Positions 13,983-16,660 of a stretch of 64,000 nt of DNA are shown here, piece by piece. A program made the position numbers and the translations under genes. Where the stretch lies: positions 23,746,001 to 23,810,000 of the forward strand of contig NW_026889751.1 in NCBI RefSeq assembly GCF_033153115.1. Reading direction: 5' to 3'. Source of the DNA: Saccostrea echinata. Its lineage: Eukaryota. Positions within the stretch are counted from its first letter, which is position 1. The number at the start of each line of letters is the position of its first letter. Under the pieces are notes generated by a model that did not search any database, was not told the DNA's origin, and was given only the letters and a program-made list of their open reading frames with translations.

Positions 13983-16660
13983 GGGGGAGTTTCGATAAGG
14001 TTGTTTTTCGGCCCCTCAAGAAATATAATGAAATTGTGATATGTTGTAGATAAAAGTGTTATCTTCCTAAAAATATGAAAAAAAATTATACTGCACATTT
14101 TCTGGTCACGTGATAATTAAAAATTTAAGTATACCCTCTTCCCTAGATTTTTGGAGGCGTCATATTTAAAGGGGGTAATGGAGTTTATTTAACGTCAAAA
14201 TCATAAATGAAATATTACAAATGTGAATAAAGGCATCAAATAACCGATTTCAATATTTTTCTTTACAGAAAATTAATGATATTTATTTTATTTGAATGCG
14301 TTTTAAGGTGCAAGATTTTTCTCGTGTTTTAATTGTAACTCTTCTTCCAAAGAGGATGAATGTAACATATAAAACGTATATGAATAATAAAGACAGGAAT
14401 TTTCAAAAAATGAATTAATCGACAGTTTATACTTAAACTTAATAATCAATATATAACATTTTCCCGTATGTAGAAAAGCAAATGTAAAGATATATAGACA
14501 AGAGATAGATAAACATAAACTGTCATTGACAGGTGTTTGACACTGTTTGCAACACATTTTTGTCAACTAAAGTTATTGTGCTAATTATAGTATTAATAAA
14601 ATGTACCGTAATTTCATTAAATTGAATTTTAAAAAAATCTTGAAATTAACAGATTTTGGAATTCGGTACGATTAAAAAATGCAGCTATTTATATTTTTAT
14701 AGTATATTTATAAGAATCATTCTGCAATGTACATTGTATTTAATAATACCAAGCGTATTACTACCAGTCAAAATATTTTGTCAAGATAGTAATTGTTAGT
14801 CCCATACCGATGAAGCCGGAGGGGTCTATAGGTTTCCTCATCGTCTGTCCGTTGTCCGTCCGTCCCTCTGTCTATCTGTCAGTCTGTTCCACTTAGTTTT
14901 TCGCACTTTACAAATTAAAAAAAAAGGGGGGGGGGGTTCGGTGTTTTTTGTTTTGTTTTGTTTTTTTCTAAAAAATAAAAATCGCATATATTGAGCTGAT
15001 TTTTGTTTTGGTATATGAGTTATAAATCAAGTTGGCATTTTCTTCCGCTTCAATGATTTTTCAAATAGGGCATTTTCAATTTTTAATGGAAACCAGGTTA
15101 TACTTGGTGTGCCGATAGTGGACAATTATTGCTAATGCAGTGCTTACAGAATGCGTGAATAAATAGCCAAATGATTAAAAAAACTAAAACACATTGAGTT
15201 CATGTCTTCTATTCATTCTTAAACTTAAAAGTATTTACGCACTTTAAGAGGTGCATTATGTTTTCAGTAAAAATGAGACAATTCAGGCAAGCGAGTACCT
15301 ACATGTAATTCCTCGCGCTTCCCAACTTCCTTTTGATGCTTATGTTGTTTCACCAACTTTAGTCACTATTTGATTTGCTAGACCATAGCCGCAATTTAAA
15401 ATACATTTGTAAATACCAAATGTATGTGTTAAATCATATCCTGTAGAAACGTACAAATCAACATCCAGTCTTAAATGTAATCTACGTTCCCTACATGTAG
15501 ACCACACGGAAATATATGTGAACCTTCTCTAACAGATTGAAGCGAGGAGGGTTTCTATTCAAAGGAATGGCTATAACCATATCCTTGATAAAGAACGTTA
15601 ATGAATGGACTAATCCTCAAACTTCTCTTTAGTTCAGTCAGTCATTCGGAAAATCTAAGATTCGGCATCTGTAACAGTTCTGATAATGTGAAACCCTAAA
15701 TGCATCATCGGTGCATATTTCTTCAAGATAGGGATTATAATTACATGAAAATAAGACATGCTTCAAAATATATACCCTGAGCATTCATCAAGAAAATGTA
15801 AGTCAGATATAGCATCTGAAGCAAGTCTGACAGTGTGCATCCGAAGATGCATCATGAAGCGCGTCTTCTCAACAAGTGCTATAGCTGCACTGCTCCATAA
15901 ACATTAACCTGCATGCTTTAAAAACATTAACCTGGACATTCTTTAACTGAAAATGCAGCATCTGAAACCCGACAGATGACAAGAAAACACTCTAGATCAG
16001 GCGACTGTGATATGAAAAAATTGATTAAAAACTTTTAATAACCTGGAACGCCTATAACGATGGTATTATAAAAGCTCCCCAACTTCGTGTAGGTGAGCTA
16101 AATATGTGACGTTAACGTTATGCGTGGGCGACGAAATAAGTATGGAAATAACTATAGGATACGATTATGTATTCTAATGTTAATATTTTCGAGAGTTCTC
16201 TTTGGTTTAGAAAAAATATGCTACTTTTGGCTTTGTATTTTAACACGGCGTAAGATCAAGTAACCAGGAGCTTCTGATTTTAGATATGCAAATTTTAGAC
16301 AATTTTCAATTTTTGGATATGAAGTGCACACGCGACACTCATCATATTTTAAGATATTAGTGTGCATAGTATATCTAATTACTGAACAAAACTAGGTGAG
16401 TGTCCCTCATGCACTTCATATTCTAACCATCGATTAATATATGCCACCCTCTTATATTTTCCCATTAGCCTAATGTTAAAGCATTTGAGGGTACATCTAA
16501 GAATGTGCCAACTGCGGCGTGAATTCATCTCATATAAACTCTTAAAATATAAATAACAAAAATATATATCTTGAATTCTAAACCAATTTTCAAGAAATAA
16601 AACGAAATTTATTTTTATGAAAATAAGTGGGCCGATAAGCGGCCTTATCGAAACTCCCCC
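13983..16660. mobile_element. Spy-like non-autonomous DNA transposon (TIRs, AAA|TTT insertion, no TSD)
   Basis: 18-bp perfect TIR gggggagtttcgataagg, imperfect to ~32 bp. Flanks ggtctaaa|tttgaagccc rebuild the uninterrupted SINE sequence seen at 54362-54384 exactly. Confidence 0.85.
14797..15155 (+). mobile_element. HINE/DINE-like fragment nested in the Spy-like element
   Basis: ttagtcccataccgatgaagccggaggggtctatagg head followed by a (gtcc/gtct)n microsatellite. Confidence 0.5.

Follow-up and report, generated by a model that had tools for sequence, protein, structure and literature searches.

Features of the window

The window, by which we mean the whole stretch of 64,000 nucleotides that was analysed, contains on its minus strand the exons of a MOSC-domain (mARC-like) gene spread over 19400-28312, in which MOSC_N is encoded near 28.1 kb and 22.2 kb and MOSC near 21.0 kb, with further motif-bearing exons close to 20.07 kb and 19.4 kb. 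A partial copy of the apparent last exon of this gene lies 2 kb downstream, where 17312-17430 is 75% identical to 19376-19503 (YGNEPIFG in the former, YGNDPIFG in the latter); this copy could serve as an alternative last exon or be a duplicate that has decayed. An inositol polyphosphate kinase exon (PF03770, E 1.6e-14) is also present on the minus strand at 41667-41939. Repeated sequence includes a 156-165 bp satellite, present in two arrays (36463-37041 and 38016-38651) that are 72-80% alike, and we take this satellite to resemble the oyster satellite that is linked to Helentron-type elements. By the apparent likeness of this satellite and of the SINEs described next, the DNA is probably that of an oyster-like bivalve. 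There are also local duplications (16857-17090 versus 17971-18205, 73%; 33812-33972 versus 34800-34964, 79%) and two minisatellites, one at 2320-2785 (33 bp x 14, 87% matches) and one at 45569-45927 (43 bp x 7, 92%, adjoining 17 bp x 4).

SINEs of two types occur in the window, which have a common 3' half and different tRNA-derived heads. The first type is found at 2848-3138, 13186-13485 and 24691-24958, and the other at 13725-16759 and 54276-54624. The head at 13391-13483 is called tRNA-Ser by ARAGORN, and the SINE copy at 13.2-13.5 kb stands head to head with the SINE at 13725-16759, which is interrupted by a further element. This element lies ~2.7 kb past the apparent last coding exon of the minus-strand MOSC gene. 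The features discussed below are as follows:

13712..13724 (+), left copy of the 13 bp target-site duplication (TSD) of the SINE
13725..13982 (+), 5' part of the tRNA-derived SINE, the last bases of which are the AAA half of the target
13983..16660 (strand not assigned), non-autonomous element of 2678 bp with terminal inverted repeats (TIRs) and without a TSD
13983..14014 (+), left TIR, first 18 bp perfect
14797..14923 (approximate limits), piece with a CGTCTGTC microsatellite, covered by many contigs
15364..15480 (-), decayed piece common to contig L002 and unnamed gene calls
15686..16066 (approximate limits), piece from which many contigs continue into unlike sequence, with loose ends at 15791-15969
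16195..16660, conserved subterminal stretch shared with L002
16629..16660 (-), right TIR, pairing with 13983..14014
16661..16759 (+), 3' part of the SINE, from the TTT half of the target to a (CAAT)n tail
16760..16772 (+), right copy of the 13 bp TSD of the SINE
54276..54624 (-), uninterrupted SINE copy that provides a paralogous empty site, with the junction run at 54362-54408

Ends of the element and the exact point of insertion

The 18-bp sequence GGGGGAGTTTCGATAAGG is present at both ends of the element, at 13983-14000 on the plus strand and at 16643-16660 on the minus strand (18/18), and the pairing of the terminal repeats continues inward to 28 of 32 bases. When the whole window was searched at ≤3 mismatches these two were the only matches, and shuffled sequences gave a mean of 0.03 matches and in 0/100 cases gave two. 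Furthermore, the 87 left and 98 right candidates in the window yield only one AAAGG..CCTTT pair with matching 14-bp ends.

The flanks of the element are AAA at 13980-13982 and TTT at 16661-16663. Once the two SINE halves are rejoined they are 86% identical over 352 columns to the uninterrupted copy at 54276-54624, with an identical run of 36 + 11 = 47 bases that crosses the junction. Of 11 registers that were compared (-5 to +5), a cut at 13982/16661 is the sole register that gives this same joined sequence. The window has four other SINE copies, and the AAA and TTT are host bases since three of these copies have AAATTT in register; the fourth has AAGTTT followed by a deletion. No host base was gained or lost at the 13982/16661 target on insertion.

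The history of the host repeat can also be read at this locus. Both halves of the SINE are flanked by a 13-bp direct repeat, TCTTAGTTTTATA, and because this duplication belongs to the SINE itself and brackets both halves, the SINE most likely predates the transposon insertion. The head of this SINE (13728-13800) scores 34.4 bits against the Rfam tRNA model (E 0.00012), and such a tRNA-derived head is a feature of the MetaSINE and bivalve SINE superfamilies, which we presume the host SINE to resemble.

An earlier note on this DNA had proposed that the element inserted between AAA and TTT without a TSD, that its excision would rebuild an intact SINE, and that the SINE, with its own 13-bp TSD intact, was the first of the two to arrive. 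The unique register together with the empty-site join bear out the first of these points, and the identical bases across the junction, when compared with 54362-54408, bear out the second. The 13-bp repeat was indeed found at 13712-13724 and 16760-16772, and its position around both halves upholds the order.

Copies and relatives elsewhere

We compared 13400-17200 with contigs from four public sequencing runs, all of which derive from one sample and contain only 5-8% of the sequence words. Contigs that join 13982 exactly to 16661 were found in 4/4 runs of this one sample, with no letter that fits both sides, and these joins likely represent other SINE copies rather than the same locus. Among the contigs listed, three (from runs X2, X3 and X4) match from 13979, so that they read TAAA and then the repeat, and they carry 36, 71 and 104 further unaligned letters outside. 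One more of the contigs listed stops at 16663, reading the repeat and then TTT, with five letters left over. These contigs suggest that an element of this kind has inserted between the same flanks in at least one further place in this one sample, though they may all represent one site. The contigs listed also align to many stretches of the element and extend to its two ends, with ~3-6 changed letters per 100. The region at 16829-17200 is left uncovered by the contigs of this sample.

An exact scan of metagenome contigs with the GGGGGAGTTTCGATAAGG 18-mer returned eight loci, one of which, on contig L002 (34% GC, with similar SINEs), is a relative of the element. The other seven were rejected as relatives since the match ends at 18-22 bases, and two viral loci with the 18-mer were rejected for the same lack of extension. 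Neither metagenome contigs nor prokaryote genomes had a stretch that matches the 32-letter pattern of both ends, and a looser end pattern had no match in prokaryote genomes either. The L002 element is 1496 bp long, has an identical left 18-mer and a right end with three mismatches, and is identical to the element in the window at 42/50 positions of the left end, 292/472 (62%) of the right end and 47/63 of the middle. Its flanks are GCATA and TTTCC, giving ATA|TTT, with no duplication and one base off AAA. The earlier note had staked its reading on other copies having AAA and TTT as flanks and no TSD. L002 has no TSD, and the few contigs of the one sample read TAAA and TTT, but the ATA left flank of L002 departs from what was expected. 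Such off-consensus flanks are to be expected and do not refute a Spy reading, since in human cells the transposon cgSpy, which also makes no duplication, places only ~60% of its insertions at AAWTT (PMC11304231, available part).

The subterminal stretch that is conserved with L002 contains an inner inverted repeat, 16312-16350 / 16388-16426. The 8-bp inner arms read GAAGTGCA/TGCACTTC in the window (16312-16426) and GAACTGCA/TGCAGTTC in L002 (about 4020-4130), with one compensatory change between them. When folding was compared with that of shuffles the inner inverted repeat gave z -4.1 in the window and z -0.9 in L002, and a conserved hairpin at this location is not supported, since L002 folds no better than shuffles. 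Our guess is that the inner arms are putative paired binding sites. In addition, L002 contains at about 7490-8640 decayed reverse-transcriptase-like frames with the motifs WRPITLLN and QYADD, which we take to be a LINE.

Coding capacity and a decayed piece on the minus strand

The longest stop-to-stop frame in the element is 104 aa (22 frames are ≥40 aa), and a Pfam scan of 21 of these 22 frames gave no match at the cut-off; an HMG-box match at E 0.018 was rejected as below the cut-off. A minus-strand frame of L002, written with X at stops, finds 14 short unnamed proteins with E up to 0.001, 10 of which were looked up and proved to be ENA records without names. The matches of these gene calls to L002 fall at about 2910-3400 and shift from frame to frame, as expected of decayed copies. 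Four of the 14 proteins also score 31-41 bits against the minus strand of the window at 15364-15480; the controls gave ≤24.6 bits in 20 shuffles and <20 bits when the element was masked or the queries were reversed. The 15364..15480 piece is likely a remnant of the transposase gene of the parent element.

Several of the fragments extend beyond the point at which L002 breaks off and carry pieces of one motif, namely KGWYFQCK..RTVG in P0015, GQWTVGCCEHIAAVLWY in P0017 and WYLGYQRH in P0005. Compared by eye, GQWTVGCCEHIAAVLWY of P0017 is identical to GARTVGCCAHIATIIWY of Spy-1_CGi at 11/17 positions of what is a short motif. In the available part of the supplement of PMC4122938, Spy-1_CGi has GWYCECKAGARTVGCCAHIATIIWYLG close to its C-terminus and VGCC occurs in three Spy transposases. 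The Atlas clusters nearest to P0017 are eukaryotic (scores 0.92-0.93), and the commonest phyla in them are Arthropoda, Rotifera and Mollusca; the first of these clusters is named SWIM-type, one is hypothetical and one has SWIM on 12% of its members. P0015 had no usable match in the Atlas.

The SWIM motif is absent from both the window and L002, and no DDE core was seen. None of three read-through frames matched Pfam, and the 14 fragments gave one weak DUF match only, below the cut-off. Searches for an intact transposase yielded none from P0003 (93 candidates, none scored), from P0017 (67 candidates in one search, 1 in another) or from viral contigs. The block shared by the window and L002 has a weak codon-position skew of 9/16 (p 0.05, uncorrected for the three frames). 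We rejected 'RLAVEVN' as an equivalent of the catalytic 'RWAVELVN', as by hand count it stands ~44 residues too near the SWIM motif.

Overall, an indirect chain of three steps, which runs via L002, the gene calls and the SWIM motif, supports the view that the remnant would descend from a Spy transposase gene, as judged from sequence likeness. That the element has no transposase ORF, as the earlier note had observed, agrees with the 104-aa maximum and with the 21/22 frames that lack a Pfam match. Its Spy-like reading is likewise supported, with an indirect protein link from 15364-15480 to the SWIM motif now added.

Comparison with Spy and related families

The traits that define Spy transposons are TIRs, insertion at AAA|TTT and the lack of a duplication (PMC4122938), and a 2014 study used paralogous empty sites, as we did here, to establish their TSD-less behaviour (PMC4122938). 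Autonomous Spy copies have a single-ORF DDE transposase. The element has TIRs, as do the Spy transposons of the PHIS superfamily, and it has the host insertion at AAA/TTT and the empty site without duplication or base loss that are features of Spy. The terminal sequence GGANNNNG is described as 'relatively well conserved' in Spy (PMC4122938), and the ends of the element, GGGGGAGT, differ from it at positions 3 and 8. Spy-7_BMo (GGGGATTG) and Spy_DTa (GGGCATAG) each differ from GGANNNNG at position 3, and Spy-1_CGi (GGAGTATA) differs at position 8, although none of these three misses both positions as the element does. Since named Spy families also depart from GGANNNNG, we treat this sequence as a tendency rather than a criterion.

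The available part of PMC4122938 lists 25 Spy families in the Pacific oyster, including non-coding families of 3039, 3599 and 4226 bp. From Table S3 these are Spy-12_CGi (= ISL2EU-N5_CGi, 3039 bp, with a 19-bp TIR), Spy-13_CGi (3599 bp) and Spy-19_CGi (4226 bp). Like the element, the non-autonomous Pacific oyster families have short TIRs, a length of several kb, no transposase and an AAA|TTT target; they likely come from the same animal group, and the likeness is one of description. The GGGGGAGTTTCGATAAGG 18-mer does not occur in the supplement text searched for three Spy/PHIS papers, PMC4122938 among them, and the family may already be catalogued in Repbase.

Silkworm Spy-1_BMo to Spy-7_BMo resemble the element in being mostly non-coding and in having AAA|TTT targets established by paralogous empty sites (PMC4122938), and Spy-7_BMo, like the element, starts with GGGG. 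In contrast to the element, the silkworm families have TIRs of 10-12 bp with a different repeat sequence, are mostly 0.8-1.6 kb long and reside in an insect host. The available part of PMC11304231 describes cvSpy (Crassostrea virginica) and cgSpy (Colletes gigas), which share the AAA/TTT flanks with the element, but which are autonomous and were shown to be active; the cvSpy and cgSpy TIR primers given there do not match the repeat of the element. According to the available part of PMC4482050, ISL2EU is a sister group with GG termini and an AT-rich target, A|AT|T, in which respects it is like the element, but it makes a 2-bp AT duplication that is absent here. The same part of that paper gives PIF/Harbinger, Pangu, NuwaI and NuwaII a 3-bp duplication (TWA, ANT, CWG, TNA), and the flanks of the element have no TWA, ANT, CWG or TNA duplication.

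These comparisons leave us with high confidence that 13983-16660 is a non-autonomous Spy transposon.

Alternative readings

We regard it as improbable that insertion at AAA|TTT was carried out by a transposase from outside the described Spy clade, which would represent either a second origin of this trait or a separate sister lineage. Ends that miss GGANNNNG at two positions would fit such an enzyme, as would the failure to recover a transposase that has a DDE core and the absence of the repeat from the searched supplements of the three Spy/PHIS papers. However, the related fragments carry a Spy-type SWIM motif, and named Spy families deviate from GGANNNNG as well. A more specific version, in which a non-Spy TSD-less lineage moves the GGGGGAGT-ended elements and has as its binding site the inner inverted repeat that two distant relatives have kept, is in our estimate a long shot; if true, animals would have a second cut-and-paste enzyme that leaves no scar.

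It is very improbable that a duplicating element (ISL2EU, Harbinger, Pangu, Nuwa or Kolobok) inserted here and that its duplication was later erased, or that the event was imprecise. Kolobok elements make a 4-bp duplication that is usually TTAA, and the contigs that match from 13979 and to 16663 would, taken alone, fit TTAA with AG..CT ends. With AG..CT ends, however, the flanks in the window are CTAA and TTGA, and the join falls short of two bases that are present in the paralogous SINEs. The oyster Spy families were themselves initially classed as ISL2EU (PMC4122938), but the AT, TWA, ANT, CWG and TNA duplications are all absent at this locus and the L002 relative also has no duplication. 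Much later change beside the ends is also unlikely, since the 18-bp ends are still perfect.

A rolling-circle element of the Helitron or Helentron type is a highly improbable source. Helitrons insert between A and T and have TC..CTRR ends without terminal inverted repeats. They also insert without duplication (PMC4122938). The A|T step of the site, the absence of a TSD, the inner inverted repeat and the microsatellite piece within the element would fit this type. Against this reading, the element has GG and CC termini, not TC and CTRR, its repeats extend to the outermost bases, and the inner pieces are located well inside the termini. Finally, chance or an assembly artefact can be dismissed, given the 0/100 shuffles with two matches, the lone AAAGG..CCTTT pair with matching 14-bp ends, the independent contigs found for many parts of the element and for its two ends, and the related element on another contig, L002.

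Proposed origin of the element

With the non-autonomous Spy reading, the locus would add one clean Spy example that has its own empty-site control and in which the order of two insertions is fixed, while knowledge of transposition itself is unchanged by it. The 18-bp end can serve as a tag for finding the matching transposase. An intact partner would be of modest use, as the Spy enzymes cgSpy and cvSpy are under trial for gene transfer (PMC11304231, available part).

We propose that the element would descend from an autonomous Spy with a gene on the minus strand, and that this gene of the ancestor may have decayed to a short remnant. Because the remnant is on the minus strand, the right end would be the old 5' end, and it is there that the 470-bp conserved stretch is found. 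Excision of the element and its insertion between the AAA and TTT of the SINE would have been the work of a Spy transposase produced at another place in the genome. The authors of the 2014 study speculate that blunt ends are joined at unstaggered positions so that there is no gap to fill (PMC4122938), and by analogy the same may apply here. The decaying element may also have picked up pieces of other repeats. Specifically, 14797..14923 probably derives from another repeat, of which the element carries a fragment, and 15686..16066 is likely a second carried repeat. Some contigs bridge these inner repeat-like pieces, as seen for 15648-16384 in one 752-base record.
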